This document shows positions 1 to 63,589 of a stretch of DNA of 64,000 nucleotides, in pieces; position 1 is the first letter of the stretch; each line of letters opens with the position of its first letter. The notes beneath the pieces are model-generated. The model was not told where the DNA came from and ran no database searches. It saw only the letters and a list, made by a program, of their open reading frames with translations. Source of the DNA: Amoebophrya sp. A120 (lineage: Eukaryota > Protista > Dinoflagellata); NCBI GenBank assembly GCA_905178155.1, contig CAJINV010000012.1, positions 2,258,166 to 2,322,165 on the forward strand, in the 5' to 3' direction. The translations under genes were made by a program, and so were the position numbers.

Positions 1-3000
1 TGGGATGTGGACCGCGCGGCTGTTGATGTACGCTTCTTAGCCGGTTTCTTCGCCGATGGCTCCTCTTTCTCGGATTGGGCAGTAGATTCTGCTGCGCTGG
101 TGGCATTGGTTTCTTCTGCTTCGATGTAGTCGTCCGAGAGTTCCTCGGCATCATCCTCTTCGTCCTCGTCCTCGGACGTTGTTGCTTCGACCTGATCAAA
201 GGGGACTTCTTTGCGCTGGTCCAGATGGATGGGATGGAGATCGTCGTAGTGCTGCATGGCCTGCATTTCGTTCTCCACCAGAAGTTTCCGGAGCAGGTCA
301 TTTTGTTTTGTGAACTCAGCGCCTGCTGGCTTGCAATGCTTCGGCTGGTAATACCTTTTTCGGTTGGTCTGCCCCAGGTGCACGGCCGCCCTGTGGAAGT
401 GCCTCGCGTGCTCCCTCATCGTCCGGCTGTTGAGATCCTTGTGTAGCGGCCATATGATGCGGCAGAATTCCAGCCAGTCGAGGTACATCAGGCACAAAGT
501 TGCTTCCAACTGCATGGGGCTTTCCGGAAATTGGTGGAGCTCATCAATGACGGCGCCTTGCATCGGCACTTGCGCATATCGCGCGAGGCGTCCCTCTATG
601 TGTTCTGCTAGCCAGTTCGGGACACATCCTGCTCGTTTTGCATGATGCCAGGCGTATCGTACTGAGTGGGCTGGGAGTTTGAGGTCTTTCGGTATCGCCG
701 TCATTAGCGTTAGTGACGTCTGGTCTCTCGCCGGGGCGGAAAAGCAAACTGCGTCGCTCAGTATGTCGCCGCGTGCCACGCTGTGATTAGTGTGTGATGG
801 TTGATATTGCAATAGTGTGCGCTCAGAGGTCTGTTCTCATTAGTGGCGTTCGCATGACACGGATCTGCATGACAGACAAAGAGGAGAGAGAGGGGAGGGG
901 GGGGATGTACCTTTTCCAGTATCGGTCGCTGCAATGCTTGCTCGTGAACGCGTGCTCAAGTGCGTCATCACCTGGGTGCTGTGGATAGGTGAAGTCGGGT
1001 CGTAGTGTCGCTCCTGTCAAAAGTGCTAATCCCGCATTCTTCGGATAGCATCTTACTCCCCAGTCCCCAGCGTCAAGGGACGCTGGGCACCTGTCTTTGT
1101 GGACGTTGATGAACAATTTGGATTGCAGGTCTCGGAGAGCCGACGCCGATGGTGCCCGGTCAAGTTGCACTTGTACTAATTCGAATCGACGCATTATTTC
1201 TTGGAACGGGAGTCCACTGCTAATTAAGTGTGATGCTATAGCCATCAGCTCCTTTTGGTACTCGTTCTTGCAGTCGGCCCCAGTAGTCCATGCGGTGGCT
1301 GTCGACGTAGACGTGCTGTGACCAGCTGAAACCTGTTGAGCTTCGATCGCCGACTGGGTCAATTTTCAACGGCGGGACCTTGAGGGGTTGCGTCGTCGGT
1401 TTGTCGGCTGCAATGGCGTTCTTCAGGATGCTTCGCGGGAGTACCTCCGCTGTTGTGCGCTCCTCCGCTTTCGGCACCGGTGGGAGTGCTGCCTCGGGTT
1501 GTGCGAAGACAGAGGATGTTGCTGGCTGTTTATCCGCTGGGGGAGCCGCATGCTTCTTCGGCCGTCCTCTGGCCTTCTTGGACGCGTCTTCTTGGTCCGA
1601 GCTTTTGCTGCGTGATCGCTTGTTGCCTGTGCTGGCTTTTTCTCCTGTGTCCGCCTTTTTGCTGCGAGCAGTTTTTTTCTTTTCGGTATTGGCCTTGCTT
1701 GTCGCTGGCTTGGCCTCCTCATCCTTGCCTTTTTGCTGGGAGGTACTGCTGGTCGCTGTGTTCTTTGCTGTGTGGTCGCTTTTGTTGCTGCTTTGTCTGC
1801 CGAACAGGTCGAGCTCGTCGTCCTGCGGCGCCAACGGGGAGCATTGATTGAAAGTCGTTCCTGGGCTGCTCCGGATTTGTTTTCCCAGATCGAATATGCT
1901 CGGCCGAACTTGTAGTCGGCGAGCGTCGAGGTGGCTCGGCGCGGCGAGGAGGATTTCTTGATTGGGGACGGGCCAAGGAAGAGCGCCGTAGCTGTTTTTT
2001 CCCTGTTGATGAAGTTTCCTAGTGCCGGGGGATGCGACTGATCAAATGGCACCGACGAGCTCTTGATACCGAAGAGAGAGGAGGAAGCAGCTTGCTGCTG
2101 TTTGGCTCTCTCCCGCGCACGCTCCTCCTGCTGTGCTTTGATTTTCTTCACTATGCTGTCCATCCTTTCTCGATCATGCGGTCCGATGGTCGTGGTTTGC
2201 TTCGGCGCCTCTGGTTCTGTCGGGGCGGGAAGCTTGTTCTTGGTGTCGCCTGAGGGCGGTAATGGGGGCACGCCAGCCTCGGTTTCTTGCGTTTCGGCTC
2301 GCGGCTGCTCATCTATGATACCTGCAAAAACAAGTGTTTGATATTATCACGCCATCATGTAGCAGGGTGCCACGTGGGCCCGCCATGGGAGGGGGGGGAT
2401 TGCATGACAGGCAAGGCGGGTTTCATTCTATGCGATACATCCTTGCTCGCATGCAAAAGTCGACTTTGATTAACACAGAGTCGATTTTTTATACCAGCTG
2501 TAGACGGCGAAGTGAGATTTACGCGGAGTCTCACTGTCTTCTTATCCTCGGTCTCCTTACCTATGGCGTCCTCGCTGTCGATCGCTTCCTGTAGCATCGC
2601 ATGGCCCATTGGATCAAATTGAACGCTGTGGCTAAGTTCGGACTCGGTGACTCTGAACTCAGACGGCGGGTCTGGGCTCGGATCCTTGGGGGGCACGAGG
2701 GCGACGCTCGTTCGCGGAGGGGTGCCCGGAACAGTGCGTCTTGGCAGGAGCGGGAGGTCAAATACGGGTGGTGGGCGTACGAGATGGAGAAGGCTGGTCG
2801 CCTTCGGTGACGACGGTGTAGGTGCGTCTCGGGCGAGAAGCGGGGCACCTGTCAGCTAATGCTCCGTCGCAAGCGCTCTGTGGACCGACAACGAGATTTG
2901 TTGCTTGACACTGTTTTTCACATCAGCTGTTGTTCGTCGACAGCAGTTGGTAGCTGGCGGGCGCGACGCGCCGTGATGTAGTGGACAAGACTAAGTCGAG

Positions 3001-3709
3001 ACAGCACAAACACAGGGCGGACAAGACACGCCAAAAACAAAAACAGCTCTCACTCACAAATCACTGCACTACGTCCCTATTTGTAAATGTTACCTGTCGC
3101 TGGGGCGTGGAATTGCGGGTGGTGTTGGTACAGAAATTCCTGGGCTCTCCTTAATGGCGGTAAGGCGTCCTTGTCGTTGGGTTGGGGATCGGTGCGAAGG
3201 GGGGCCAGGTGCGCGGCTGTGTCGACCACGGTGCGCACGGCTGTTTCCTTCTCGACGATCGCAGGCTGGCTTGTAGCAGCGGCATCGGTGTGCACGGCTG
3301 TTTCCTGAGATTTGTCGTTGTCCACGGCTTTTTCCTGAATTTTGGCGCTGTACACGGCTGTTTCGTCCGATACGGCCATGTGCTCGGCAGAGGGGGTTGT
3401 GGCAGGGGGGTCGTGCGCGGCCTTCTGGTCCGCTGGTGCTGGCTCGTCTACTCGGATCTCCTCTTGTAGCTGCAGCTTATCTTCTTTACCTGAAGGAAAG
3501 AGATTGATAAATTTTTTCTGACGCAAGTGGCTTGATCGTAAGGGGGAATCAATATTCCAGGACAGATTGCTTACAACAATTTTTTCTTTCTACAGGCACG
3601 CGCTGATCAGCGTGCAACAACAAACTGCTATAGAAAAAGCCATACAGTTTTTTCGTCTGCCGGCGGCGCCGGCTTTGGGTGTCGCGGTCGTGTTCTTGTT
3701 TTTGGCCAT
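1..3709 (-). CDS. Multi-exon hypothetical protein (Pro/Lys/acidic low complexity), 3' end beyond window
   Basis: ATG at 3709 (MAKNKNTT). Phase-compatible GT-AG introns at about 3490-3645, 2849-3093, 2322-2494 and 783-910 join the listed ORFs. Frame switches near 1850, 1360 and 350 are unresolved. Confidence 0.55.
3235..3370. repeat. Coding repeat, 4 copies of cacggct(g/t)tttc (E-T/K-A-V), last three at 30-bp period
   Basis: Copies near 3236, 3293, 3323, 3353 inside an exon. Confidence 0.75.
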
Positions 3710-4115
3710 CTTTGTTGACAATTTAACTTTGAGTTTGTGAGTAGTAGTTTGTTTCCCGTCAGAAACAGCCTAATTGGTAGGTGAGTTACGTGTAATTCGG
3801 GCCTGCACGCAATAACGCAAGCGACAAAGAAAGAACCGACTCAGTCCTGCTGTTTGATCCTGCTGCTTGATCCTGCCGAATCGCTGAAACATTGATCCTG
3901 CTGCTTGATCATCGCGGAACTTGTTTTTTGCGAGCTGCTGTGTCGCGATGAGATCTATTTCTTGTTGGGTGTGTGGCTGCATGGCAAGCTGCTGCGTTGC
4001 CGCATGGCCCGTGGTTGATCAATGTGGGACTGCGGGTGAACAGGGTGCGAGAGCAGTGGATCACAAAACAGGGGCAGCAGTGACGTACTGCACAACTGCA
4101 AAGTCCTATAATTAC

Positions 4116-5022: not shown

Positions 5023-5051
5023 TGTGCCGAGCGAGCGAGAAAAGGACAAGA

Positions 5052-5312: not shown

Positions 5313-5849
5313 TTTTTGATGCTAAAGCAAGATGATCCTGCTCAAAATGTGGGAAAAAAGCGGACAGGGTGATCGCTATCCGCGCACGCTGCGCTGCAAG
5401 ATCCAGAACAACGGGCACACGACGTGCATTTTGGCGATGGTATGGAACAGATCGCAATCTTGCTGGTGCGCAAAGCAAACAAAAAGGGCAGAAAGATGAT
5501 CGTGATCTCAGTGTGGAAAAGGTGGAGCGAACATCAAGCTTTTTGCTTTCACAGGATCCAACGCGAGCATCGAGCTGTATGAGTAACCAAGCTCTTTCGT
5601 GCTGCTATTCGCTGCCTTGGTTGCGTATTGTAGTGCGCTGACAAGCGGACCTTGGGAGTGCTAGTCTCACTGTGCTCGGACAATACAAACGTGTAGCTGT
5701 GGTCGCTTCACGCAGTAGCGGTGTCCATGCCTGTGGTGTCTGTGCTCGGGCTGTGGTGCTGCATGTCACCTGATAGTCGATTGGTGTGGATCGTGAGGGA
5801 GTTAGCATTTTGATCACATGACGGCGTGTAAAAATGCATGACAAACATA

Positions 5850-7200
5850 TTGCACTATGCCTGTGCTTGTTCCAGCGCGGACGGGTGCAGGTCGTTCGCA
5901 GTGTTCTTCAGCGCGTGATGCGACGATGCCAGGTGTGTGCATGGTGGTGCCGCAGGTCTGCATATGCAACGGGAGGCAACGCCACCTGCTGTCACCGTGT
6001 GTGGTGCCAGCAGGTTGCTTGCCAGCTGCTCAGGTCGGCAGCCTGTAGCAGCTGATGGCCCGCAGCGGGCTGCGCTGCGCCACGACGTCGGGCGATCAAA
6101 CATCGTGTTGCAACGTGAGTGACAGCACATAGTGTCGGGGACGACACCTACGTGCTGCGCACGGGGGTTGTGCACCATGACTTGTGCTTGTTTGCGCCAC
6201 ATGGGACAGCGTGCACACACGTGCACGCGCGTGTGCGAGCGTGCTGGCCGATGCACGCGGTCGTGCGGGTGGGGACCCGTACGCGCCGCTGCACGCACAC
6301 TTGCAGCGTGCTGACACACACGGTTGCATGCGTACACACGCTGCGCTGGCGCCGGCGGGTGAAACCACCGTCGACCGCAGCGTGCCTGCCGGCAGGCGCG
6401 CATGCACGAGCGTGCGCATGCGCGCCGGCGGGCGCGTGCGTGCGCGTCGATGCGCACGCACATGTGGGTCAAGCAAGTGTGCACACGGTTGTGCTACCAC
6501 GTGAGCACGCCTGCGTGACGCGCGGGCCACGCAGGGCAGGACGGACGGGTCGTGCGAGTGCAACAAGACGTTGCCGCCGCAGCCCGGCCGTGCAGTGCAA
6601 GGGAGAGAGCGGCGCGTCACACCACATCGCAGTGGAGGGACACGCCGGTGCCACGGGTGGCATGAGAAGTGGACAGGGAGCGCTACGCGCGCCCCCCGGG
6701 AGGACGTCAGGATCGCAGGCGCACGAGCGGTGCGCTGGAACCACGACGCCACCCACGCCGCACTTGGATGTGCGGGCGGGAGGTCCATGCGCCCGACCTT
6801 CACCTACGAGGTCGCACGACGCACGGGCCTATGCACTTACACAACCCTATCTGGACCAGACGGGGAGGTGCAAGGCGGCGGGGGCGCGGCAGCTGCCAAA
6901 GCAGCGCCCCCTAGGCATGAAGTGTGAGTGCCGACACCGACGCGTGCACAGGTCTTCTAGCCTGCACACCGGTGGAGCATAACACACACGCCTTGCGGTG
7001 TCCAACCGCACGTTGCTCGGTCCCCCTCGGGGGAGCTGGCAACGTAAGAACGCGTGCTGCAGAGGCAGCACTGGGTGCGAAGGGGTGCTCGCGCACCACA
7101 GACGCGTGTCGTGAGGGACACATAGTCGCATCGACGCGACGGTGCTGCGTGAGGTGCAGCGCTGCGTGAGGTGCAGCGTGGCGCGAAGACGCAGCCACAG
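5850..7200. repeat. GC-rich alternating purine-pyrimidine island
   Basis: Dense gtgc/gcac/cgcg words; 29-nt uninterrupted RY run at 6209-6237; ORFs in all frames are Arg/Ala/Cys/His-rich and look spurious. Confidence 0.7.
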
Positions 7201-7214
7201 TGCCGACGGGCACA

Positions 7215-7550: not shown

Positions 7551-7568
7551 CAGTCTAGTTACCAAGTC

Positions 7569-8580
7569 CTAAAAAGCCAGCTATCCTCTGCAAAAGTATC
7601 GCACTGGTATAAATTATGCAAGTCTTGCATTACAAATCTTGCTCCCAGGAAAGCAAATCAGCATGACAAATTCCATTTCTCGCGCTGAGGAAATTTGTAA
7701 TGCAATTTATACTAGTGCGTTAGTTTTGCAGTTCATACCAGCGACGCCCCCGCATCCAGTCGCCCGACGACTTTTTTGAAACCTAGCTGCCCCAGAATCG
7801 CGTTCGTTTCCTCCAGGGATAAACCCTTCCGCATCGCTCTTCTGATCGCCAGTTTCCGGGGCAGATCTTGGTAGTACTTCATCTCTTTAAACGCCTCTTT
7901 CGCCTCAACAAGCGCGTTTGTGTCGCTGATTCCATTCTTCACGATTTTCGTGATCATGTGCTGTCTTTCCTTGACCCGCCTCTCCGACTTCCTCCGGAGG
8001 AACTCCGGGTGGGATTGCTGCAACTTTTCCATTATGAAATGCAAAAGCATCGTAGTCGTACTAGCAGCAATCGCATTACAAATTATTGGCTCAGCATCAC
8101 AAATGGAATCTCTCATGCTGACTTACTTTGAAAGAGCGATTTGCCATGCATAAACGCGATTACTTTTACGACGAGTACGATACTTTTGCACAGGATATCC
8201 ATGCAACCGCGCGAAGTTCCCAACCCGATTGCGAGGGAATTTCGGAGCGATTTCTTCACTTCCTGGTCGTCTAGCAACGTGCCGAATTGAAACGCGGTGG
8301 AGGAGAGCAGTCGGTTCGTCTGCGTTAGTGTCTCTTCCAAAGAGGACAGTCTTGGTGGCGGCTCGTAGTTGTTATTGGCATTGTAATCGTTTATCGTTGT
8401 GCTAGTACTTCGAGCAGCTCTGGGCGACGAGGGTGATCCGGCCAACTTCCCGAGCGCGACCGGGAGTTTCGGGACCACCTGGACTTCGTGGAGCTCCGGT
8501 GGGGTCCGCTCGCCGGTTTCCAAGCGCGGAGTCGACATGGCGTCATCGTCCTTGCCGGCGTCTAGTATCGAGGTGGACAT
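7569..8580 (-). CDS. Hypothetical coiled-coil protein, paralogous to the central part of gene 14432-19894; two introner insertions; start uncertain
   Basis: Removing 8033-8197 and 7582-7737 (each plus one repeat) gives ...TSRGCMEKLQQSHPEFLRRKSERRVKERQHMITKIVKNG...ASLAF*. Confidence 0.7.
7582..7737. mobile_element. Introner/MITE family A
   Basis: Ends tatcctctgcaaaagtatcgcact...agtgcgttagttttgcagttcata; 5-bp direct repeat ccagc. Confidence 0.92.
8033..8197. mobile_element. Introner/MITE family A (opposite orientation)
   Basis: Ends tatgaaatgcaaaagcatcg...cgatacttttgcacaggata; repeat tccat; removal restores C-M-E-K-L. Confidence 0.95.
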
Positions 8581-9686: not shown

Positions 9687-9947
9687 TATCAAACGCAAAA
9701 GTGTCTGGGTCTGGAAGCACGGGAGTTTGTCATGCTCAGCTAGCATGACTCTCAAGTCTGTCATGCAGCACGTTATCCAAGAAAAGCTGCGGCTTTCTGT
9801 CATGCAAAAACGCAGTTTGTCATGCTGAATAGACAACACGTAGCAAGTCAGAAACTTCTTGTCATGTTGAGCCGTCACTTGTGGCATCCTCATGATTCGC
9901 CACTCAGCATCACAAGTTTCTAGACCCAGACATTTTTGCAACCCATA
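9687..9947. mobile_element. Introner/MITE family B, outside any confidently called CDS
   Basis: Ends tatcaaacgcaaaagtgtctgggtctggaa...ttctagacccagacatttttgcaacccata; repeat cctcg/ccccg. Confidence 0.9.
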
Positions 9948-10197: not shown

Positions 10198-11251
10198 TTA
10201 TAACCACGAATGCTGAGAGCGAGGAAGCGGTGGCTTAATTATTCGAGAGGTGATGAAAATATGCATTTTCTTTCTTCCACTTTTTTGTACTTTTGTCTCT
10301 TGTTCGGTTTTGCAATTGGGCACAACTTCAGATACACAATTAGAATTACCTTTATTTGCTGCGAAAAATAATGTGACGAGTATGTGTTCACTTACGAAGA
10401 ACTCCTGGGGGGAGACTTGACAAGCGGTAGCTGCGTCCGGGAAGAGCAAACTTCCAGTCTCGATCGGCGGCGATGGGGGTCGCTGTTTTGACATCAAAGT
10501 TTCGCGCACTTCTTCTCGGAATCCCGACTCTGCTGCTTTGTCCACCTGTAATTTTCCCAGTTTAGAAAGAACTTTCTTCATGTCAAGTACGGACATGGAT
10601 AGGGCGCCCAAGCCATTCACTCAGAATGCAGATGCGCAGCCACGCGGCTATTTTTTCTGTATAGGGCCCACAACTCCGCCACCGCTACGACTACGCCTTG
10701 AATCGAAACGGTACAGCCCCCGTCTTCATAAACCAAATAAATCGAGGTCGTGTCGAGCCAACAGCCCATGCAGAGTGCGACTGCAAAAAACGCGACGTGC
10801 CTTAGCATCTCTCGCAAAGAAAAAGTCATAGTTTTCGTATAGAACAGCGTACCTGTGTAAAGCGTCCATTCCTGCGCCTGCTGATAAACGACTAGGAGTG
10901 CAAAAGCGGGCGCGTGCCCTGGGTGTCTTCGTTTTCGGATGCGGAAGAGGCGGAGTGCTTCTCGCTCTCGTACACGAGCGCCCGAAGTTCCAGGGCTTTT
11001 TTCAAGTTCCGGTTTGCCCGGCTAAACAGATGCTCCTTTTTCTTGGCAGCTGCCGGCGCGGCCTTGGCTGCAGAAGGGTGGGCGGCATTCTTGGCCGCGG
11101 ACGAACCCGGGCTGGCTACTTCGTCATCCGCGGCCACAGGAGAGGATGCACTGGGGACGATTTCTTTGTCAGTGCTGGACCCTTCGTTTTCGTTGGTCGA
11201 CCCTGCATCAGTGTCGGTCGCTATCCACCTGTGCAAAACCACATTACCCAC
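10198..11251 (-). CDS. Possible exons of an unresolved gene (or 3' exons of the 11387-13609 gene)
   Basis: ORFs 10892-11251 and 10198-10620, with cacag-type acceptors near 11228 and 10853; no complete model built. Confidence 0.25.
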
Positions 11252-11386
11252 CCCACACTCAGACTCAAGATGGGAGGAACTCTACGATGAACAAGTCCGA
11301 TTGATTCACACATGAAGAATTTGGCTAGGCAGCGCAGTACTGCCGAGATAGCTAGAAGTTATCTCGTAGTTAATAGCACATGGCAA

Positions 11387-13609
11387 TCACATTTCAAAAA
11401 CTAACAAAAAATGTCTCCGCTGCGGAGCCGTGGGAGAGGTCGTGGCTTTCATTTGGCCATGCAAGCACATATGCACGACAAGTGTGGGGTGGGTGCGATT
11501 TTTACACAAGATAGTCGTCAGCAAGTTGCTCACGGTCGGGTTTTTAGATTTTGATTTTGTTTCAGAAACCGGGGCCGGGATAGGATCTTCTTCCGCGAGC
11601 TTCTTCTTGTTCTTCCCCCGCCAGCGAGAAAAACAACAAGACAGCGCGAGTAAGACCGCCGCCAGAACAAGTGCCAACAGCATGCTGAAAATCCATGACG
11701 CTTCGTCTACATCACGGGAAACCATTGCTGTACCCGGCAAGCCTTCCGTTTCTGCCAGAAGACGTGTGTCCCCGGGTCCTTTGACGATCGGGGCCGCATG
11801 TGGCTGAGTGCAGGGCAACACCGTGCATGGCTGGGCAGCTGTCGTCTGCTGTGATGTTTCGCTTGTACTAGTACTAGTGAGAACCTGCGATTGTGAAGCC
11901 TGGGACTGCTGAAATTCCTCTGCCGCAGACGTTTTCTTCGCGAGCGTGGTGCCTGCTGTTTCCGAGGAGAACGAATGTGCGCTGCTGGGTGTGTTCGCAG
12001 CACCATTGCTATCAGATGACTCCGGGAACGCGTCTGTCGTGCTTCCATTTGCGCCCGAGTCGCGTTTGTCCAGCTCACTTTGGGAGGCTTCTGACAAAAA
12101 CGACGTCGCATATTTTGGATGCGCAACATTTTCTCCAGCTTGCCAGGATATGGGCCGCGGATCCTGAGGTTTGCCGCTTCGCAGTTGATTCTCAACTTCA
12201 GAGGGGAGGTCACATTTTTTGCCGCTGCCACATCGGTTGCACCAGCCTTCCAGTGTAGTTGATATTGGAAGCGATTTTTGTCCTTGCATTTTTCTCGCCT
12301 GTTCGGAGAAACGAAATGCTTCCGCAACTGCTCCTTGCTGACGATTTGGAGAAGCCTCGCCCTGGCCATACACATAAATACGGACGCTCGAGAGTCTTTC
12401 AGGATCACCCAGCTTACCACGAAGAGGAGCAAACGCCACGCTCATTTCCGTTTTGATCAGCCCTTTCTCCTTTTCCGCAATTACCACGCAGCGATTGTTC
12501 AGTGCGTTCTTATCAAAAGACCAGTTACAGTCATTGGGCTTCGGCGTCTGTATCTGGTCATTTTCTTTTTTCCAAGAAATAACTGCAAAGGAGCCCCAGC
12601 CGGACCACATATCTTCTGCGCCATGGTTCGGTGGTGTATAGAATGGCGCAGAAAAAATATGATGCGTAGGAAGTTGTACAATTTTCGCTCGCCCTCGCGC
12701 TGTTAGTGTTTGTGTTTCTGTTTTGAAACTGATGGGAACGCGTTCTGCCACATGCCCTCTGAAACCACGTTGGATGTCCTCGACCGTTGCGTAATCCAAA
12801 GGCGTGATGTGAACACGGGGATGAGCAGGCGTCCCGTCAATCTGGGTTGACCCCGCCGCGTTGGCACTCACCAAAGCCTCGCCCATCACTACGGCACTTG
12901 GAGGAAGTGTGGGGAGTAACTTAGCGAGAAAGTAATCGGATATGATCTCGTCATCATATCCATCGGCAATGTCCGGATGATAACTATCTCCCATCGACTG
13001 GAGTCCGCTCCCGTCGCTCTTCCCGCGGAGCAAAAACACATCCTCCGGAAACTTCGCTCGTAGTAACTTCAGAAGCTGGATGGTGGGTAAACTCTGCTCT
13101 CCGCTGACAGCGTCTGATAATGTCCCATTATTTTCACCGAGGTCGTCGATAATGAAAATGATTTTGCTCGGTGCCCGTGGAGGGTGAGGTCCTGTGGTCG
13201 TCCATACGTTTCCTTCTACCGGCAGACTGCTGAGGATGCTCAGCGTGTCATCAAAAGCCGAAAGATTTTTTGCAACTACAACAACGTCCGCGCACGTGTT
13301 TTTTTGTTCATCTGGAGCATCAGCTTCTGTTTTTATTTCTGGCTCGGGGCTGGCGCAAAGGACAAGCGTGCTATCAGGTTGTACTGGATTTTGTTCTTGT
13401 GCCTGCGTGTAGAGGTTGTGGATAATTTCCATGTTATGCCTATTCTTTAACTGGTCTCGCAACTCTTTTGATTTTTGCCCACCATCTTGGAGAAGAAAAC
13501 CTGGGTCTGTCAGTGCGCCATTGAAATTTTTGACCAACTCGTCTGGAAGCGCCTTCGCCTGCGCCTCGTCTTCGCAAAATTCTTTCAATGCTGACCCCAC
13601 ACTTCCCAT
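11387..13609 (-). CDS. PPP-family (calcineurin-like) pseudo-phosphatase with Ser/Thr-rich stalk and C-terminal transmembrane helix
   Basis: Degenerate PPP motifs in the expected order: VVVVAKNLSAFDD, IIFIIDDLGENNG, SLPTIQLLKLLRAKFPEDVFLLRGKSD, HIFSAPFY. TM WIFSMLLALVLAAVLLALSCCF followed by basic residues. Both ends may be spliced further. Confidence 0.7.
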   Translation of the reverse strand: MGSVGSALKEFCEDEAQAKALPDELVKNFNGALTDPGFLLQDGGQKSKELRDQLKNRHNMEIIHNLYTQAQEQNPVQPDSTLVLCASPEPEIKTEADAPDEQKNTCADVVVVAKNLSAFDDTLSILSSLPVEGNVWTTTGPHPPRAPSKIIFIIDDLGENNGTLSDAVSGEQSLPTIQLLKLLRAKFPEDVFLLRGKSDGSGLQSMGDSYHPDIADGYDDEIISDYFLAKLLPTLPPSAVVMGEALVSANAAGSTQIDGTPAHPRVHITPLDYATVEDIQRGFRGHVAERVPISFKTETQTLTARGRAKIVQLPTHHIFSAPFYTPPNHGAEDMWSGWGSFAVISWKKENDQIQTPKPNDCNWSFDKNALNNRCVVIAEKEKGLIKTEMSVAFAPLRGKLGDPERLSSVRIYVYGQGEASPNRQQGAVAEAFRFSEQARKMQGQKSLPISTTLEGWCNRCGSGKKCDLPSEVENQLRSGKPQDPRPISWQAGENVAHPKYATSFLSEASQSELDKRDSGANGSTTDAFPESSDSNGAANTPSSAHSFSSETAGTTLAKKTSAAEEFQQSQASQSQVLTSTSTSETSQQTTAAQPCTVLPCTQPHAAPIVKGPGDTRLLAETEGLPGTAMVSRDVDEASWIFSMLLALVLAAVLLALSCCFSRWRGKNKKKLAEEDPIPAPVSETKSKSKNPTVSNLLTTILCKNRTHPTLVVHMCLHGQMKATTSPTAPQRRHFLLVFEM

Positions 13610-51070: not shown

Positions 51071-54000
51071 TCACTTGCTCTCGGTCTTGTCGTCAAGAAG
51101 ATCAGGAGTACTAAATCTCTGTTCGGCGGGTAGTCCGAAGTTCTTTACCAACAGTGTGTACGTCGGGTCATCAGACTTAATCTCTTTCTCGACCCAACCT
51201 GCGGTGTCTCGTTTTTTTTTTGTGCCCCCATCCACCCCTTCCATGTGCTTATGTTTACCGCATTCGAATTTCGTTTTTAGCCAGACTTCTCGCTGTACTT
51301 GTCTAGGGTCCGACCAAGCCAAATCGGACTCCGCCATAGAGAGTTTCACTTCCTGAGCCACCTTGTCGTCGTCCTTTATCGCCTTTACCGGCTGAGCAAG
51401 TCTTTGCACGAAGAGCTGCAGGTCGTCGATCTTCTCACGGCGCGTTTCCCCATCCATCGTGTGACCATCTTTTCCTGTAGCTGTACCTACTTTCGCCTTC
51501 AATCGGTGTTCACTCAACTCGTTTTCAAAATTGCTGAGCGCGCCTCGTGCAGAGTTCTTGACCTCTACCTTGCCGTAGTCCGCGCTCCCCTTTTTGGCCT
51601 TCACAGGCACCATGAACTCATCCCAAAACTTTTCGAGAAACACGAGGCACTGGTCCGGATTCCTTTGGAGGAGAAGGTCAACATCGTGGACGCCCAGGTC
51701 TGCGCTTCGCAGCGCATCAAGAAGTCTGGCCAAATACCTAGCCGGGCGATCTCGGCCACGCGAAGAAAAAGCATCGCTGTCCGCTTCCATCTCCTCCACC
51801 AAATATTCCGGGTTTGTTTTGGGCTTTTTTCCATCGCTAAAGGCTCTTTGAACCAACATCTTGATGTGCTGTTTTATATCTTGTGGCCCCTCACTGCTTC
51901 GCCCCAAACGCGGCATTGTAAAAAGAGGCGGAGTTGGGTCTTTACAATTCTCGCATCCGCCTAACACTTCGCGCAACCACGCGGCAGCGGTCGTAGGATT
52001 CCCGGGTTTGGGTTCAAGAATCTTTGGCAGAGGAATCCGGTGATTACCTCCAAAACCGTCGCAAAGAGGCTCCAATCGGAGCTCGCCTGTCCTACAATTC
52101 GTCAGCGCATCTAGGTAAGCTGTTATCTGGTGCGCCTTTCTGTGACCATCCTTGCCCGTCGCGACATCCGTGAGAACCTTCTCCATGAAGTTGGTTAAAA
52201 CATTGTTGCTCGGAAGCTCCTGCAGCCTGTCTCTTTCCGGATCGTAACGAGCCATGTTCCAAGCAATGCTCTCCAACATCTCCTTCCCGTATTCTGCATC
52301 CACGGACGATTTCAATGGCGAACTCAGTAGAGATTTGATTTTGTCTCGGGCTGTGGAGTCGTCCGCTGTGCCCGGCAGCATTACCTTCGCGCCCCCGTCA
52401 AGGGTGAATGGTACAAGATAGTCGGACAACACTCCCGCAAGGGCGCGCTTCCGCTTCTCCTTCAGTGTCACTGATGCGTCGGCCTCGGTACCCGCTGCCC
52501 CTGCGTTCTGGTGCATTAGCGAAAGGGCTACCAGCTCCTTGCCGAGAGTATCCTGTCGCTTCCGTGGACTACTCCTGCTCACAGCATCAGCACCATCAAG
52601 ATCAAGGTCACCTCGTCCAAACCCCGTTTCCATCGTCAGAAAAGCGATCAGCTGCTCATGGGTTGCAAACGCGGATTCTGGTGCAGCTGCGGGTGCTCCA
52701 GAGGTGCTCGTCGTGCCGTAGCCCACCTCGTAGGCGAAAAGCTTCGGCGCCAGAAATTGCAGAAAGTCTCCCGGCGTGTTCCGGGCGTTCCCGGCAATTG
52801 CATTGGTTTTAACCCACGATAACAGAGGGAAACTTTCGGTCGCGGAGTTCTCAGCCGTGGACCCGATGGAGCGAAGCAGAGCAAGGCAAGAATTGTGCTC
52901 GTGCCGCAAATCAGAAATCTTTGGATCTTGGGAGCAAACCGACTTTACAACATCCTTTACGTTAATGAGCATGGCTTTCGCGGTGTCTTTCTCCTCTGGT
53001 ACTGGCCGTGGCAGTGGTTCTCGCGCGGGGTCGACCTCCGGGGCTTGTGGTAGGTCTTCGGTATCGGGAGCTAGAAGATGATCCGGTAAGCTGCTTTTGG
53101 ACGCACCAGGAGCCGCGCCTAGTATCGCCGGTAAGGTCGCGGCCCTACGCGGCGGCTGGCGCTGGGGCTCTCCCTCTGCTGGGTCTGCCTTTGCTGGTGG
53201 TGGTGGAGGGGGCGCGTCCGGTGGAGGTAGTGGTGGTCGTTCTCGTTGTAAGGGTTCCTCGCCGCGACCGGACGATGCTTTCTTAAGCTTTGCTTCTTCG
53301 GGACGATCATGCTCTGTTTCTTCGGCATCACCAGCTGGTGCAGACGCCACAGCCACGTTCTCTCGTCCTTCCTCGCGTGGTGGAGGATCACTACCTGCTT
53401 GTGTGGTGGAAGCGCCAGCATCTGGAACGGTCACGGTAGAACCAGGACCCGCACCGGGAGCACCGCTGTCATCTCCAATGCCCCCTTCAGCAATTGCTCC
53501 TGATCTCGCAAGTTGCGTCTCCAAAAACGCTAGGCGTTTGTGTATCTTGTCAATCCCCGCGGCAATGTGCAACTGGAGAACGGCAGAGGCAGTTGACGCA
53601 ACATCCACGTCCTCCACACCACTGCCTGTCGCCCCCGATTCCGCCTTAACATCACCCTCCGTTGACTTCTTCTTGTTTTTTCGAGAACTCGAACCAAAAT
53701 CCGCATCGCTTTCCGACGACTTCTTCTTGTTTTTGCGACGCGACGACCGGCGCTTCTTGCTTCCACCCCCGCCCTTCAGTTTCGTCTTCGACTTCTGTTC
53801 GTCTACTTGTTTCTCGCCGCCACCTGGCCCATCAGCAGGTTCGTTCTTACTTCCACTTTTTTCTAGCATCGTCGCCCGTTTGTACGCCGCCACGACCTCC
53901 TTATCCAACTGGTCGTCCTCGTCTTTCAAGAAGGCGTACTGGTTATGCATTGCAAACATGTCTGGGTCTGGAGGAGTGCAAGGTTTGCCATGCTTGTCTG

Positions 54001-54300
54001 GCATGAGTACGGAGTTTGTGATGCGTGTCTAAGAAAAGACGCTTTCGCTTGTCATGCAAAGTCATGCGAAAAACGCAACACAAAGCCTCCCAAATATTTC
54101 TCATGCTTGGCTGTGCATTAGAGATACAGAGCATTGGTGTTCCCGATTCACAGCCCAGCATAAGCATTACAAGTTTCCAGTCCCAGACACATTTGCATTT
54201 GATACTGATCCTCAGTCGCCGTGGCGGCGACCAGCACGGGCGGTGATAGCAGGCAAGAGGTGCTCCCGGCGACCCGTACGAAAGTTTTGGTACGAGGCAT
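51071..54300 (-). CDS. About 990-aa hypothetical protein with weak signal-like N-terminus, basic NLS-like repeats and Pro-rich linker
   Basis: ATG 54300 (MPRTKTFVRVAGSTSCLLSPPVLVAATATEDQ|YAFLK) after removing 53944-54204; remainder is one ORF. Confidence 0.8.
53944..54204. mobile_element. Introner/MITE family B
   Basis: Ends tatgcattgcaaacatgtctggg...cccagacacatttgcatttgata; repeat ctggt/ctgat. Confidence 0.93.
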
Positions 54301-55209
54301 GTTGTCGAAGGCGGTGTAGTTGACGCGGTTCGTTCTTTTTTTTTACTGGTTATTTCCAGAACAAATATCTTTTACCAGGGCGTCAAGATCAAGAATGAGA
54401 ATGTCCGAGAGGACGATTCCAGACTGCAGCGTGTTCTTCGCTGTCTTGCGTTGTTTGTCGGAGTTGCTGTTTGTGTCGTCTAAACGTCGAAAAACGGAAA
54501 TGGATGAGCAGCTACTTCTACTTCGCCTGATCGTGAGCTCTGCTGGTTTGAGATGAGAGTGGTAGACAGCTGCGAGTGGTGCGTTTATATGTCGAAAATG
54601 GAAAATGAGTGAGTACTCGTTCTTCAAACAACAGGTTTTTTGGGTAAGGTTAAATGAAAATTGTGGGATGTCGTAATTTGTGAAAGAATTCCTCATCGGG
54701 AAACTGTGTCGTTAGTTGCAAACGAAGATAAGAAATACGAGCACCAGGCCGGAGAAAACAACATCAACCCTTTGCTCGCCTCTTATGGCCTGCGAGTGAC
54801 TGTCTGACATATACAGAAAACATATGGGGTCGTCAACGTTGTATTTGCCTCAGACCGTAAAAAAAATTCTGCGCGCATTTTTTCGCGGCGCAAAGCTAGT
54901 AAACCTGTGCACGCTAGTGAGGGGCTGACTTGAACGCGGTTTGTTTTACCTAGCTTGTCAGCAACACTGCTCCAGTAGGTAAGTGAGTATTGACGCGAAG
55001 GGGGGCGGGGCGCTGGGGGTTCTTCTGTGGCTGATGTTTCCACCTAGAAAACGCCGGGCGCGCGCAATATTTTTCTCATTTTTCCGGATTGCTCTCTCCG
55101 TGCAGCTATTTGCCGCTATGGCCTGGGTCAGCGTGTGAGGCTGGAAACGCCCCGCGAGATGTCTACACAGGCCCTGGCCTCGTCGTCTCTAGCAGGCACC
55201 ACGCACACA

Positions 55210-55420
55210 TGTTGGCCGCGAAGGCCTTTCCGGAGCCCTTCCAAAAAGGGGGAGCCGGAGGGGTGCCCGGAACCCTAAAAAAAGCCTATTGCTTTTTCTT
55301 CGAATCACGATGGTGCTACCCCTCCCCAAAAGGGGTCCCGGAACCCCTCTGGGAACCCTTCCCGAAAGGCTCTCGGGCTTTTCGCATTTTGCCGAAAAAG
55401 CCGCAAAGGCAAAATGCGCG
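55210..55420. repeat. Unclassified GC-rich repeat/hairpin block
   Basis: Recurrent ggaaccc and aaaagggg words; perfect 11-bp stem cgcattttgcc (55383-55393) / ggcaaaatgcg (55408-55418). Confidence 0.5.
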
Positions 55421-56579
55421 CGCGCCTGCCGGTACACGCGTGCACAGCTGCGCGACATTAGAAACAAGGGGAGGCGCAGCCGCGGCCGATTCCGTTTGCG
55501 CCCTCGACTCCGACCGACTTGCACAGATTGAGGCCCATTGTCTAGCGGCTGGACTGCAAGAGGACCTGCTGCAGCACCTCCTGGCTGCAGGGGCGCTCCG
55601 AGGCAAGTCCGTGGAGCAGCAGCGCCGGATAGCTCCGTCTTTAGCCACTGAGAAGCGCTGCGAATAGGCTAGCGATTTCATTAGGTGTGCAACATAGTGG
55701 GGGGCTATACGTGTGCAACATGATGGATATCAAATACAAAAAAAGGCGCGCGGAAAATTTTTTACAGCTTGAGGCAAATACAAGTTTGACGACGCCATAA
55801 AACAACATCAAGATTGATACGACGACGCTTACTTGCTTTTCAACGCACGAGACCGAAACTTGCACGTTTATTTTGGGGTGCAGTTCACGACGGACAAACA
55901 TTTTTAAACGCAGTACGACAAAATGAATACGACAAGATTTGTTCTGGCTCACTTACTTACGAACGGGAACGAAAGCGACACTGGACGAGATACAAATTAC
56001 GGTCCACCGACTAAGCAGCCCTTGAAGTTGGACCAAAAAGGTAGAGTCCACTACTGCTCCATGTTACCGACACCGAGACGATATGGGTATGAGAAAAGCG
56101 AACGTACTTACTTTGGCTTTGCTCAATAACAATAACAAGCACGATGAGGCTCCATGAAACGGAGCAGACGCAGACCGAACGGCTACTTACACGCGAAGGT
56201 GACGAAGCAATTCGCTAGAAAAGAGCGGGTCCGCCCTGCTTTGCTGCTGGTACAGCTTCTACTTGAAGAGTTCTTCTCGATGTTGTCGCTTTTTGCGTTC
56301 GCTGCGATAATTCTTCGAAACTGAATGTTGGAGTTGCGGTCTTTATTGTTCACAGGCTAGTAGAAGCGCGGCTTTGAACTTTTATGACAATCGCTGCAAG
56401 GGCTGCTTCTTCCTTTCAAAGCAAAAAATCTATGTTTTGCTCCTGCTTTAAGGATTTTTGCGGCACATCATCTGGCGGCGTAAGTAGGATGCTCATGAAC
56501 GAACCTCACCTCGTCCCTCTCCCTGAGCAATTACCACTTCACTCGTGGTGAAAGCCAGCACGACCTGCTCACCCAAAAC

Positions 56580-58506
56580 TCACATCATATCATCCCCTGG
56601 CATGTCGAACTTTCCAATGTTGTCAATATCGGACTGCTTCGGCCCGCCCGGCTGGTACGCTTTTGACATTGCCTCGCCGATGATGCGTTTCATGCTGTCG
56701 TCACCCTCATCGTACATGTCTTTCATCATGCTCATGATCCCGCCCGTTGCATCCGCCGCTTTCCCCTTGTTCGCCTGTTTTTCGTCCTCTCGCTTTCGCC
56801 GCCCCCCGACGTCCGTCCAGGTCTCGTAGCTGATAGTGTTTTTGTAGTTGTACTTTTGCATGACAAGATTTACAGCTCCCCCTCTTTGTGCACCATGCCA
56901 CAGCAGATAAACGTGCTGAGTAAAAGTAAATTCCCTTGCAGCTATAGAATTATTCTATCATAGTCTTTCGAGTTCGAAGTACAACTCAAATAGGAGATGC
57001 ATCAAAGAAAAAATCCTTTACTTACCCCATCGTTCCTCCCTCCACCTTCTGCATGGTGATGAGCACGTGATTTTTCTTCACCGAGTGCGACGATTTTGCC
57101 GCCACGATGTCGTTATGAAATGCAAAAGAATCGTACTAGTATAAATTGCATTACAAATTCACGTAGCATTACAAATCAAATTTGTAATGCGGATTTGCCT
57201 TAGTAAAGAGATTTGTAATGCATAAACGCAATTGGTACGAGTACGATACTTTTGCACTCGATAGTCGTGCTGCAACGCGGTTCTTCTGAACCGGTAGTTT
57301 ACCCTGTTATGGGTGTGTCAGGATTGAAATCGACAAAGTTGAAATAGTTTGCGATGCATAAAATGCAACGCAGAAATTGTCTCTATTGCAAACGATGCAA
57401 GGGAGGCAGATTACAAGCCTGCTGTGGGGTAGAAATAGAGCTGCTAAAGTAGCATGACAAAAGGCGTCGTCCTTACCCAAACAGCATGACAAACTGGATT
57501 TAGGCTCTACCCAAGTTTGTCATGCGCCACTTGGAAACTGGGCTTCAACTGGCATCCATTTTATGCATGGCAAATTATTTCAACTTTGACGATTTCAAAC
57601 CTGACGCTTCCATACCCGTCCAGGTTTTTCACTTTCACATCCAAACTCATCCGGGTGAACTCCGTTGTGATGTTATCAAAATGAAAAATCCCCCCACCCC
57701 ATACGCGAACTTGAAATTTGTGATGCAGATTTGTGGCCCTGGCCACAAATCTTCAGCTTTGTCATGCTAGAAGGGAAAAGATGCGGACTGTAGTGCTGGT
57801 TGGCGTGGGCAAGCCTTGCATCTTCAGCATGACATGGGGTAGCTGGGAGTGGGAAACAGCATGACAAATTGCCTGCAAATGAGGCCACAGCTGCGTCTCT
57901 TGGCCTTCTAGCATTACAAGTCGACTTGTGTACTCAAATACAGCATCACAAATTTCGTTTTCGATATGGGGAGGGGGGATTTTTCATTCTGATAGATGTT
58001 TTCGGCTGGCAGATTTTCCACGCCTTTGAGCCGCAAGTCCACGACGACCTCCTTGTCGTTGTACCCACCGCCCTTTTTCATCTCGTAGATGCTCACCTCG
58101 GTCCACCTGAGAGATTTTTAGGAGTTTGTTTGTATGTAGGGAGTTTGGTATGCAAAATCAAAATGAGCCGTTCCTCTTCCTCGTTACATCAGGAGATCAT
58201 GGTGGTCATCTTCAAGACACTACTTACATATTAATATTTCCAAGTAGAAGAGGCCACTACTTACTTCAAATTCGCGTCCGATGAGGCGCTGGCGCCAGCT
58301 GGCGCTGCACTCGCCTCGCCGTGGGTCTTCAATACGTCCATCGCACCCGTATCGTCGTCCAACACCACCGGTTTCGGCCGGGTTTTCTCGATCTGCGCCT
58401 TGCTCTGCTGGATTTGGCTGGTTAAGAAGTCTTTTACCAGTGGTCTCTTCGCGTGTTCCACGAGCTGCTCGAGCTCGGCGACATCGAGTTCCGAAAGGCC
58501 GCCCAT
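56580..58506 (-). CDS. CACYBP: Calcyclin-binding protein / Siah-interacting protein (CS and SGS domains)
   Basis: DVAELEQLVEHAKRPLVKDFL, SLDVKVKNLDGVNYRF, GIMSMMKDMYDEGDDSMKRIIGEA; three introners plus GT-AG introns at about 58107-58264 and 56830-57025. Confidence 0.92.
57114..57263. mobile_element. Introner/MITE family A (opposite orientation)
   Basis: Ends tatgaaatgcaaaagaatcgtact...agtacgatacttttgcactcgata; repeat gtcgt. Confidence 0.95.
57308..57614. mobile_element. Introner/MITE family E
   Basis: Ends tatgggtgtgtcagg...cctgacgcttccata; repeat cctgt/cccgt; removal restores LDGVNYRF. Confidence 0.95.
57674..57994. mobile_element. Introner/MITE family D
   Basis: Ends tatcaaaatgaaaaatccccccaccccata...tatggggaggggggatttttcattctgata; repeat gatgt. 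Confidence 0.95.
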
Positions 58507-60443: not shown

Positions 60444-63400
60444 TTAACCACAGAGGGACTGGGCCACGAGCGCGATCGGCATAGCCAGCAAGGTATGAAT
60501 TGCAAAGGCGTCGCACAAGTAGTAATTGCAATACAAATTCGCGCAGCATGACAAATGGAATCTGTAATGCTAATTGACCTTGGGAGCGAGCAGATTTGTA
60601 ATGCATGGCTGCAATTACTACGAGTATGATACTTTTGCAGTGGATACAAGGCAATCGGAGTGAAGATCATCATCGGGATGCAGTGCAGCTCGCCCTTCCT
60701 GACCGCGGGACCGTCCGCCTTCGCGGCCGGCTTGGCCGCGGCCGCACCACCGGCGGTGGCGGCCGCCGCCTTCGGCTTACCGTCATCCAGCACCCCGATC
60801 ACCGCGTCCGGGGCGTACTTTCCAATCACATCCGGGGGGTGGATCATGTTAAACTCCTCGGTTGCGTCCTTACCCGCGAAGGTCAGGATCGCCAGCGCAC
60901 CACCGGGGTGGTCCGGGAGAAACTTGGTCACATCCAGGACCTGGCCGTTCACCACGACCCAGCAGTCTGTTTTTAGTTGTTTTGATCATTTTGTAAGTAT
61001 GTCGTCAGCGATCTCGTCAATATATTGTGGTCCAGCAACATCATGCTCATGCACTTGCACGGCGGATTCCGCAACAAAAATTTAAGTTTAACTCGTGGTG
61101 TGCATCTTCGATTTACATTGCAGAGTTTGTACCACGAAGCAAACAATCTATCACTATCATGCATGAAAATCGATGTTATATATTACCCTGCTCCGTAGTG
61201 TGCTTGGCGACTTCCGCCAGGGTGTAGCCACCGCTTCCCGCACCCGCGGCCGCCGGAGCACCCTTGTTCGGCTCGTCCTCGTAAGAACCACCGGACAGGG
61301 CGGACTTCTCGGTACCGCCGCCGGAGATACCGCCACCAGAAAGCTCGCGCAACGAGGTAGCCTTCAACGACGAACCGAGCATATACTGGGCGCAGCTGTT
61401 GTTGAGGTGGTTTTTGATTCAGGATCTTTCTTGATCTTGTCATGCTAAACAGAAGTGCGGCACACTTTGCCTCCCCCTTTGTAAACGGCCGCAGATGGCT
61501 GTCACGCAGGGAATGTAGGTCAGGCGATCGTTGCACTAAAGAGCGAAAGCGTCATGTCAATCATGCATGAGAAACATCAAAAAATATGCTCTAAAAGTAT
61601 ACGCCTTTCCCGCGACGCGACCGTAGACCACGCAGTCCAGCAACGAGTTGCCGCCCAACCGGTTGTTTCCGTGGACGCCACCCATCACCTCACCCGCCGC
61701 GTACAGACCCGGAATGACTTTTCCGCCCGCGCCAACCACCTCGGAGCTGGTGGTGATTTCCAAACCGCCCATGCAGTAGTGGATAATCGGGGTGATGATC
61801 GCGACGTAAAACGGCTCGGAGGCGAACTGGGAGCCCGGGATGATGTTGTGGAAGAACTTCTTTCCCGACCCGGTCTTGCCGGACGGCTCGTCCCAGGTCT
61901 TGCCGCTGGGGTAGGCCGGGAACGGGCCACCATCCGGATCCTTCTCCATCTTCATCGCAGCCTGGTAGTGGGCCTCGTGGGCGGCAGCCATGCGCTCCAC
62001 CGGAACACCGAGGTCCTTTGCGAGAGCGGCACCAGACTCGTAGAACTTCATCACGCCACGCCCGGTGTAGTGCTTGCAGTGCCAGATGATTTCTTCGGAG
62101 GCAGCCTGAGGTTTTAGGTGGAGGTGGTTATGATGTTGACTACGCTTGTTTTTTTGGAGAGAGATGTTCAAGCGTGATGGCATTTTTCTGACTGTTACTG
62201 GAGAGGCACTGATCATGCATGCCCGCAAATTGCACATAAAATGTATTTACAGTTTTACCTTGTTCAAGCACAGACGGAAGGGTCCCTTGTTCTTCCACAT
62301 CTCCCCGGTGACGTAGTCGCGGCGACCCAACTCGTTGGCGAACCGGTTGCCATCGGCATCGAAGATCAAACCACCGACACCGCGCAGCGCCTCGGCGGCC
62401 AAAAACTTCACCTTCGCATCGGGGTCCTTGGGGTTCACCAAACCGGTCGGGTGGACCTGCACCCACTCCAGATCGATGGTCCGCGCACCAATGGCTTCAC
62501 CCATCTTGATACCGTCACCTGCGGATTTGATGGTATTGTTTTCATTCTACTGTGATGAGCAGTAGATGAACACGACCCATCTTCAAAAATAACGATCATC
62601 ATTCTCTTAAGGTTGTACAGCAGACGAGCTGGAAATTTAAACTACCGGTGCAGTGCTCGCCATTCGAGGTGGGCAAGTGCATCAAGTCCGGGCGGTACTT
62701 GGCTAGCAGAGAGTCCTGGGAAAAGTCGGCGCCGAACCCGCCAGTGGCGATGATGACCGGTCCCATTTCCTTCAGCATGGAGCCACCCTTTTCGTAGTTG
62801 ACCCCGACGACCTTGCCTCCCTGGAAGATCAAGCTGGTGGCCTTCGCCTTGGTGACGACCTTTGCCACGGACCCGTTGGTCTTCTCGGCGATCTTCTCCA
62901 CCATCTGGATCAAGGCGTAGGTGATGGTCATACCCGGGAAGCGCTCCTTACCACGGTGGGTACGCGGGGCGGAGTGACCACCCAGACGGGCGACCAGAGA
63001 GAGGTCCAGACCGAACACGTCCATCAACCAGTCGCAATCCGGACCAGAATTTTCGGCGAGGACCTTTTTTTGTATTGCAGAATTTTGCATGATGCGTTGT
63101 CGTAGCTGTTCTGTAAAAGTTCAAGTTTGGAATGCATATGACTAATGAGAGCTCAAAGTTGTATTGCAAAAGTCACATATTATACCTTGACCAACTCCGG
63201 CTTCTTCGCACCACCCTTCAAGCAATCGTTGGTAAACAGCTCCACGGAATCCTCAATTCCATTGGCGCGTTGGGTCTGTAGTGGTATTGGTAAGTGGTTT
63301 AGGCATGACAGACTTGATCCATCATCTTGGTTTCACATCTTAAATTGCAAGCGTAAGCTTGCAGTTTGAATGAGACATGCAAATTCCCGAACAAAATCCA

Positions 63401-63589
63401 AGTGAATAAATCCCAAGTGTGTTGTATTAATACCTTGGTGTTAGCCCCGTTGATTCCACTGGTGGCCTTGGTCGAGTTACCACCGCAGAACGCGGACTTG
63501 TCCAGCAGCACAACCTTGCCGCCGTTTTCCATAACGGTATTGGCCGCAGCCATACCGGACAAACCACCTCCGAGAACGATAGCAGTCAT
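60444..63589 (-). CDS. Flavocytochrome-c/Osm1-type fumarate reductase flavoprotein fused to a cytochrome b5 domain and hydrophobic C-terminal tail
   Basis: [61 protein letters not shown]; b5 motifs DCWVVVNG and HPGG; six GT-AG introns and one introner. Confidence 0.93.
60494..60646. mobile_element. Introner/MITE family A (opposite orientation)
   Basis: Ends tatgaattgcaaaggcgtcgcac...atgatacttttgcagtggata; repeat caagg; removal restores [10 protein letters not shown]. Confidence 0.93.

Follow-up and report, generated by a model that had tools for sequence, protein, structure and literature searches.

A repeated motif in the introner elements and some ordinary introns of Amoebophrya sp. A120

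We analysed a 64-kb stretch of the genome of Amoebophrya sp. A120 (contig CAJINV010000012.1, positions 2,258,166 to 2,322,165), which we call the window. It is 50% GC, and all of the recognised genes lie on the minus strand. Pfam searches with nine open reading frames (ORFs) from the window identified only the CobW and FAD_binding_2 families and no transposase, and one window protein has dinoflagellate-type relatives. The window also contains 34 TAT...ATA elements with 5-bp target-site duplications (TSDs). According to the available text of PMC7789003 and PMC12130899, the introners of A120 likewise have a TAT start, about seven variable bases, and a run of A, as well as inverted repeats, short direct repeats, non-canonical splice ends, and lengths of roughly 150–320 bp. 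The lengths of the window families also resemble those of the published A120 families (as compared for rows 1–19 of 58). We found that a short motif, GCATNACAA, is repeated within nearly all of these elements and is also present in some ordinary introns, by which we mean GT-AG or GC-AG introns that lack terminal inverted repeats (TIRs). This feature is real and replicated, it lies within a known introner system, and it is apparently undescribed.

The TSD is perfect for 25 of the 34 elements, matches at four of five positions for 8, and matches at three of five for 1; the 5-bp register also emerged from an element search that did not use TSDs. Across 894 element ends, the terminal consensus is T (887), A (883), T (876), and positions 11–14 are A-rich. 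RNA contig evidence covers positions 44001–64000, where the contigs jump across three elements and six GT-AG introns. Specifically, 47428–47754 and 60489–60646 are skipped and 53937–54202 is missing, with non-canonical ends. For the remaining elements, we infer removal from the mRNA from the continuity of the ORFs. The depth in DNA contigs is about 1,200–92,000 for bins with elements (versus about 27 for unique bins), and the element families have 2–203 members. At least one exact copy of the motif is present in 32 of the 34 elements, which bears out a preliminary description in which the motif was said to be common to dissimilar element families. The other two are a decayed element at 11222 (one near copy) and a 977-bp element at 54823 (none). 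The elements are listed here without strand, and the counts are exact copies of the motif.

7582..7737, introner of family 1, three exact copies
8033..8197, introner of family 1, two
9687..9947, element of family 2 outside of the predicted coding sequence, three
11222..11513, decayed family-3-like introner, one near copy 32 bp from the end
15010..15264, introner of family 2, one
16187..16474, introner of family 3, copies all RNA-sense
16909..17193, introner of family 3 in the opposite orientation, copies all RNA-antisense
18745..19007, introner of family 2, two
19051..19201, introner of family 4, three
19336..19597, introner of family 2, three
19642..19857, introner of family 5, two
21173..21449, introner of family 6, one
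24183..24296, introner of a 114-bp family (eight members including this one), one; contains 24218
27151..27461, introner of family 7, four
30450..30717, introner of family 2, two
30777..31028, introner of family 2, four
31388..31577, introner of family 5, two
36194..36343, introner of family 1, two
36613..36760, introner of family 1, two
37061..37210, introner of family 1, three
37482..37631, introner of family 1, two
37741..37890, introner of family 1, four
38615..38774, introner of family 4, two
39885..40119, introner of family 6, three
45084..45237, introner of family 1, two
45340..45589, introner of family 2, four
47433..47754, introner of family 8, two; skipped by RNA contigs
48051..48199, introner of family 1, two
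53944..54204, introner of family 2, three; missing from an RNA contig
54823..55799, control: multi-copy intergenic TAT...ATA element of 977 bp with a perfect 5-bp TSD and no motif
57114..57263, introner of family 1, four
57308..57614, introner of family 7, three
57674..57994, introner of family 8, five
60494..60646, introner of family 1, two; skipped by RNA contigs

The window contains 90 exact copies of GCATNACAA (51 on the plus strand and 39 on the minus strand). The N position is G in 51 of these, T in 23, C in 15, and A in just 1, and the top-ranked 9-mer of the window is GCATGACAA. The TAT...ATA elements account for 82 of the copies (10.0 per kb across 8,193 bp), and 19 TIR-less introns account for another seven (2.4 per kb across 2,915 bp). 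The last copy, which is the rare GCATAACAA, is in the 17,750 bp of other DNA. The motif had been described as scarce in exons, and indeed there is no exact copy in 35,142 bp of coding sequence; nor did we find enrichment in the intergenic DNA of the window. When the TIR-less introns were shuffled so as to preserve dinucleotides, the mean number of exact copies was 0.28, with a maximum of two in 400 shuffles. We also counted k-mers de novo in the 19 introns alone. TCATGC ranked first (16 occurrences in 13 of the 19 introns, with 1.5 expected), and GTCATGC was also top-ranked (11 occurrences in 9 of the 19, with 0.24 expected). Since these counts alone yield the core of the motif as the top 6-mer and 7-mer, the signal in the introns is independent of the prior motif search.

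Six of the 19 introns have direct joints in RNA contigs, four are consistent with the pieces or lengths of contigs, and nine are based on the reading frame only, as are the introns in 1–44000. The introns at 5770 and 21546 (frame only) were recognised after a motif match had been noticed. Seven of the 19 have no match with a position weight matrix (PWM) score of 10 or above. Introns with copies or variants of the motif are as follows.

781..910, minus strand, GT-AG intron, near copies at 852 and 867; frame only
2322..2494, minus strand, GT-AG intron, near copy at 2402; frame only
5770..5860, minus strand, GC-AG intron, exact copy at 5836; frame only
21546..21635, minus strand, GT-AG intron, near copy at 21607; frame only
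44564..44674, minus strand, GT-AG intron, copies at 44601 and 44633, 32 bp apart; consistent with RNA contig size
44759..44943, minus strand, GT-AG intron, exact copy at 44901; consistent with RNA contig size
47826..48003, minus strand, GT-AG intron, exact copies at 47945 and 47984 in a tandem duplication; frame only
49604..49757, minus strand, GT-AG intron, four near copies; frame only
56830..57025, minus strand, GT-AG intron, exact copy at 56858; an RNA contig piece ends at 56829
61396..61602, minus strand, GT-AG intron in a fumarate-reductase-like gene, exact copy at 61437 and near copy at 61565; RNA-verified
63064..63185, minus strand, GT-AG intron, GCAATACAA variants; RNA-verified
63276..63433, minus strand, GT-AG intron, near copy at 63303; RNA-verified

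The preliminary description listed 13 coordinates, and there is a full or near copy at all 13. One of these sites, 24218, which had been assigned to a conventional intron, is actually inside the TAT...ATA element 24183–24296 of the 114-bp family. Both copies at 47945 and 47984 are present, but they are not independent because a single 39-bp tandem duplication made both of them. At 852, 867, 2402, 49611, and 63303 the motif is present, but as one-mismatch copies rather than exact ones. Two sites in introns had been missed: 5836 (in the GC-AG intron) and 21607.

Several other features of these introns deserve mention. Donors are GTAT in 36 of 65 GT-AG introns (window and second-set loci combined), a fraction that the donor matrix used for prediction may inflate. 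We considered GTAT donors as a sign of introner origin, but they are not associated with the motif (11/19 versus 25/46). Acceptors are nearly always CAG behind an A/C-rich tail, with no pyrimidine tract. The probable GC-AG intron at 5770–5860 joins open frames of 212 and 100 amino acids, and the upstream frame has no Pfam match. At 47940–48010, the 39-bp duplication runs across the 5' splice site and gives two candidate donors along with the two motif copies. Between 900 and 2300, there are two changes of reading frame that no clear intron accounts for, which could reflect frameshifts, assembly errors, or unrecognised introns.

We examined a second set of sequences, for which the end pattern of family 1 gave 141 loci from one assembly in metagenome_contigs (512 kb after merging). 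The longest similarities between the window and this assembly are elements only, and it could be from the same strain or a different one. Among 447 elements called in the second assembly (the same calling gave three false calls in 179 kb of shuffled sequence), the motif is present with at most one mismatch in 445 and exactly in 419. Introns were predicted with a gene model that took no account of the motif and learned its splice-site matrices from the window introns. This model recovered 17 of the 18 GT-AG introns in the window, which is an inflated figure (the same introns trained it). Filtering reduced 154 intron predictions to 56, and removing six with similarity to TIRs or elements left 50. 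These 50 GT-AG introns, all of them predictions with no RNA behind them, contain seven exact copies (versus 0.64 expected) and 14 strong PWM matches (versus 1.2 expected). The strong matches are in 10 of the 50 introns, which is lower than the 9 of 19 window introns at the same threshold. GCATGA and GCATGAC were again the top de novo words. Thus the motif exceeds the composition-matched background in the TIR-less introns of both sets, which passes one of the tests proposed in the preliminary description. Overall, 23 of the 69 introns have a site at a PWM score of 10 or above, and 46 do not. (In this assembly, the contig at L068/L069 mirrors itself over about 12 kb, which is probably an inverted-duplication artefact of assembly.)

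The arrangement of the copies, on a lattice of about 16 bp and at set distances from the element ends, is a new observation and the best clue to the mechanism. Each element has 3–6 copies, in either orientation. Spacings cluster at 16, 31–34, 47–50, 64–69, and about 82 bp, and 32 bp dominates; the peak at 30–34 bp is found in 11 of 12 families. The family-collapsed peaks have a period of 16–16.5 bp (R = 0.61; nominal p = 4e-7, with peaks within a family being non-independent). When one copy is drawn at random from each family, 64% of the gaps between adjacent sites fall on the lattice, compared with 26% when sites are placed randomly. In most families, outward-pointing copies are 31–33 or 39–44 bp from the element end, and these offsets recur across families; in families 1 and 4, there are inward-pointing copies at 33–34 and 42. 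In two variants of 815 and 1,104 bp, inspection shows copies toward the ends only. The spacers turn over while the sites and their spacing persist. In the TIR-less introns, the lattice as defined by the elements (period 16.3) accommodates 10 of 15 adjacent spacings, with 5 of 10 in the window and 5 of 5 in the second-set loci (the duplicated intron is left out of this count), and 12 of 15 are near multiples of 16 (p = 0.001).

One explanation for this geometry is that the motif is a chromatin-positioning or DNA-modification signal (phasing of nucleosomes or of dinoflagellate/viral nucleoproteins, or adenine methylation) that takes no part in copying or splicing as such. The 32-bp spacing corresponds to three helical turns, and the median lengths of 10 of 13 families (150, 151, 162, 171, 211, 222, 242, 262, 282, and 322) are 0–2 modulo 10, with a nominal p of 0.011 that is uncorrected for the number of periods tried. 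A is avoided in VATB-type contexts for N6-methyladenine, as it is at the N of the motif. However, the pooled spacings have no 10.5-bp period (R = 0.02) and have a 16-bp period instead, the motif is a specific 9-mer rather than a dinucleotide pattern, and it is absent from coding sequence and intergenic DNA. We consider this explanation to be very improbable. Helical phasing at 10.5 bp had appeared among same-orientation pairs in the window (p = 0.002), but it weakened as more families were included and was gone once the orientations were pooled, and the lattice of about 16 bp supersedes it.

The elements have some other peculiarities. A small set of sequences (TATGCATTG, TATCAAATG, TATGAAATG, and TATCCTGTG), shared among the elements and mixed between ends and families, supplies their first nine bases. 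The TATGCATTGCAA terminus includes a one-mismatch copy of the motif at position 4, and the next copy is 31 bp away. The spliced introner 60489–60646 has GT...AG on the non-coding strand and no GT-AG on the coding strand, which makes it a trap for strand-blind intron callers. Insertions in the window and the second-set loci are strongly biased toward coding sequence (266 confident coding versus 13 confident non-coding, with 90 ambiguous), while about 40% of the sequence is non-coding. Two long variants from different families (L022:6184-6998 and L010:1420-1876) contain the same unrelated captured segment, and L006:505-1608 is a 1.1-kb variant with GC-rich cargo; we found no ORF of transposase length in these three long variants.

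It had been proposed that conservation of the motif be compared to that of its flanks. In aligned family copies, the eight fixed bases of the motif are 0.72–0.95 identical, versus 0.47–0.83 for other interior bases, so the motif outlasts its diverging flanks. Across 383 nearest-neighbour pairs, the ratio of motif to interior divergence is 0.2–0.3. (Because sites were defined in one partner, the neutral ratio would be about 0.5.) In close pairs, mismatches in the motif core are at about 2%, which is of the same order as TSD mismatches; about a fifth of elements have one TSD mismatch in five positions. As TSD mismatches arise only after insertion, single copies of the motif seem to decay freely once inserted. 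The number of motifs is about equal in coding- and non-coding-flanked copies (0.98 versus 1.08, relative), and we saw no extra retention in coding contexts, with 13 confident non-coding copies for comparison. These patterns agree with a model in which selection acts when elements are copied and single copies then decay almost neutrally, but redundancy would mask weak selection by the host.

The orientation of the copies bears on whether the motif is read in DNA or in RNA. Of 190 elements in confident coding frames, 29 contain copies in a single orientation (sense in 14 and antisense in 15), and 20 of these 29 would shift the frame if retained. The elements at 16187 and 16909 are such an opposite pair within one gene. 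In GT-AG introns, antisense copies outnumber sense copies by 14 to 3 in the window, and in the second set the bias reverses, with 5 antisense and 11 sense. These results support the earlier suggestion of orientation independence. As one-orientation elements in coding frames occur both ways, the signal is probably read on DNA; and since copies at the dominant spacing share the same orientation, recognition of double-stranded DNA is the simpler reading.

The motif might instead be an RNA-level splicing signal, either a site for an RNA-binding protein or a stem formed by sense and antisense copies. In line with this, the RNA of GT-AG introns in the window reads UGUCAUGC 11 times versus once for the reverse, and small hairpins can arise from convergent copies that are 16 nt apart. 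But the reversal of the strand bias, together with the 14/15 split of one-orientation elements, argues against a stranded signal, and copies at the dominant spacing cannot pair with each other. Also, intron 61396–61602 folds no better than shuffled sequences (z = -0.57), and Rfam has no matches in the window. We judge an RNA-level signal to be improbable. A strand-specific RNA motif, at which the window had hinted, failed to replicate in the second set, and an "outward" orientation of copies by intron half was not significant in GT-AG introns (Fisher p = 0.17).

What kind of protein might bind the array? In Ac/Ds and En/Spm, transposases bind to repeated subterminal motifs. The subterminal transposase-binding repeats of miniature inverted-repeat transposable elements (MITEs; Emigrant/Lemi1) are similar in being short sites repeated near both ends, in both orientations, and in unlike elements, and cooperative binding of transposase to such repeats is a precedent (both from the available text of PMC1636448). 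Unlike MITEs, the elements studied here are spliced introns, they have a 16-bp lattice across 12–13 families, and their sites also occur in ordinary introns. As described in the accessible part of PMC10045372, IS3EU/GingerRoot elements have TA..TA termini, comparable to TAT...ATA, and Ginger2 elements have TSDs of 4–5 bp, but the TSD of IS3EU/GingerRoot is usually 6 bp and not 5 bp. We found no transposase gene in the window or the second set with which to place the elements. One introner family of A120 is reported to have a Copia-integrase-like ORF between its TIRs (in the available text of PMC12130899).

Our preferred reading, which we think is about equally likely to be right or wrong, is that the motif array is a candidate double-stranded-DNA binding site for the copying protein (a transposase or its cofactor) and that some GT-AG introns are converted introners. 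Protein subunits would load on the array, pair the two TAT ends, and integrate a copy flanked by a 5-bp duplication, and an element whose array was no longer intact would cease to found further copies. On this view, the GT-AG introns that carry the motif would have started out as introners and later exchanged their ends for ordinary splice sites, as can be seen for a few of them and as we suppose for the rest. The TAT termini and 5-bp TSDs that are common to all families support mobilisation by such a protein.

For intron 61396–61602, a stretch of 92 bp that starts at the motif has 83% identity to a variant of family 3 (E = 1e-17), with an ordinary acceptor region where the introner's TIR would stand. 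The direction of transfer is not proven, because the matching stretch is an insert in the family-3 variant. In the second set, 3 of the 56 predicted GT-AG introns (L022:378, L055:4389, and L047:8496) are introner remnants between normal splice sites, and the other three of the dropped predictions resemble decayed introners that had not been detected. So the earlier suggestion that canonical introns are decayed introners holds for these four introns; as an account by passive decay, it fails for most of the motif-positive introns.

Several results weigh against our proposal. The 977-bp element resembles the others in its ends and TSD and is present at 13–19 times the depth of unique DNA, yet it lacks the motif, so at least one TAT element can do without it. 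(This element has its own pattern of A-tracts and GCGCGC near both ends, and its longest ORF has no Pfam match.) We found no autonomous partner element in 576 kb, and in the available text of Farhat et al. (PMC7789003), no transposase was found in A120. As for the TIR-less introns, medians for remnants of TIR arms were 11.0 for the 23 motif-positive introns and 10.7 for the 46 negative ones, with 1 of the 23 above threshold. Among simulated relics, the arm was visible in 97% at 15% decay and in 20–32% at 30–35% decay. The motifs in these introns appear to be about 10% decayed (exact/near ratio of 0.57, with a mismatch spectrum like that of intact elements), and G at the N position is more frequent in them (23/30 versus 257/493, p = 0.013). 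End-to-end alignment identified no end complementarity or TIR remnants in any of the 19 window introns, and similarity of the flanks is slight (5 of 33 sites at p ≤ 0.05). If simulated relics decay passively to the observed motif quality (about 10–15%), then 95–98% are detectable by BLAST and 97–98% by the arm profile, under a simple mutation model with a library of 481 elements. As simulated decay leaves relics detectable, there are two possibilities: these introns lost their ends by removal and stem from lineages that are extinct or unsampled, or selection keeps the motif in them. Viral contigs had no matches for two TIR patterns and no autonomous element; 87 paired-motif matches in them (79 with a spacing of 30 or 33) have no BLAST similarity to the elements and were set aside.

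Selection is at the heart of another explanation, in which a host protein or a domesticated transposase marks introns by binding to their DNA and aids their co-transcriptional handling by the spliceosome or polymerase. The array would let introners be tolerated in exons, and some ordinary introns would keep or gain it under selection. This has to be taken seriously because the 23 motif-positive introns show no above-background TIR remnants even though their motifs look young. Enrichment of the motif in the TIR-less introns of two data sets, with the lattice kept and little homology in the flanks, is in accord with it, as is the lack of enrichment in intergenic DNA. Every one of the 266 confident coding-context elements has a site at a PWM score of 10 or above, and the motif-free 977-bp element is intergenic. 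Also, U1 small nuclear RNA (snRNA) is undetected in A120 or A25, according to the available text of PMC7789003. On the other hand, 46 of the 69 ordinary introns do without the motif, 4 of the 266 coding copies lack a site at a PWM score of 12 or above, and retention is equal in coding and non-coding contexts (with the 13 confident non-coding copies). Distances to element ends are also tighter than those to GT-AG splice sites (10 in the introner windows versus 8.3 expected, p = 0.31). We regard a host mark of this kind as a tentative possibility. An intron-definition signal, which the preliminary description had offered as one option, cannot be a general one because of those 46 introns without the motif, and the lack of extra retention in coding copies also speaks against it. 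A combined form, which we hold to be rather unlikely, is that one sequence-specific DNA-binding protein, perhaps a domesticated transposase, reads the array with its 16-bp lattice in two roles, the copying of introners and the marking of introns that are to be removed; ordinary introns would keep the array under selection after losing other traces of the transposon, and intron identity would be partly written in DNA.

Canonical introns with inverted or direct repeats were already reported and make up 15% in A120 (Farhat et al. 2021, PMC7789003; Gozashti et al. 2025, PMC12130899; available text of both). As described there, the published A120 introners have terminal repeat features only, with no internal motif shared across families, no lattice, and no motif in TIR-less GT-AG introns. 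The string "gcatg" is absent from the text of PMC7789003, and three motif words are absent from the text of its supplement (figures, including the intron logos, fall outside of this search). A text search of 12 of the 14 supplements of PMC12130899 also did not find the motif, and the searched parts of the literature, including PMC9860276, PMC12005148, and PMC11282704, contained no description of it.

The available text of PMC7789003 and PMC12130899 leaves open by what means the introners, which number in the tens of thousands, are mobilised, and how their splicing proceeds when canonical ends are missing and U1 snRNA is undetected. The presence of one motif and one lattice in all of the families examined argues for a single mobilising protein and against the published doubt about mobilisation by a transposase. 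The array is a ready bait with which to isolate that protein, and the motif is a tracer for the conversion of introners to ordinary introns, with an RNA-verified example. If it is true that selection keeps the motif in ordinary introns, then it would be a DNA-level mark of introns.

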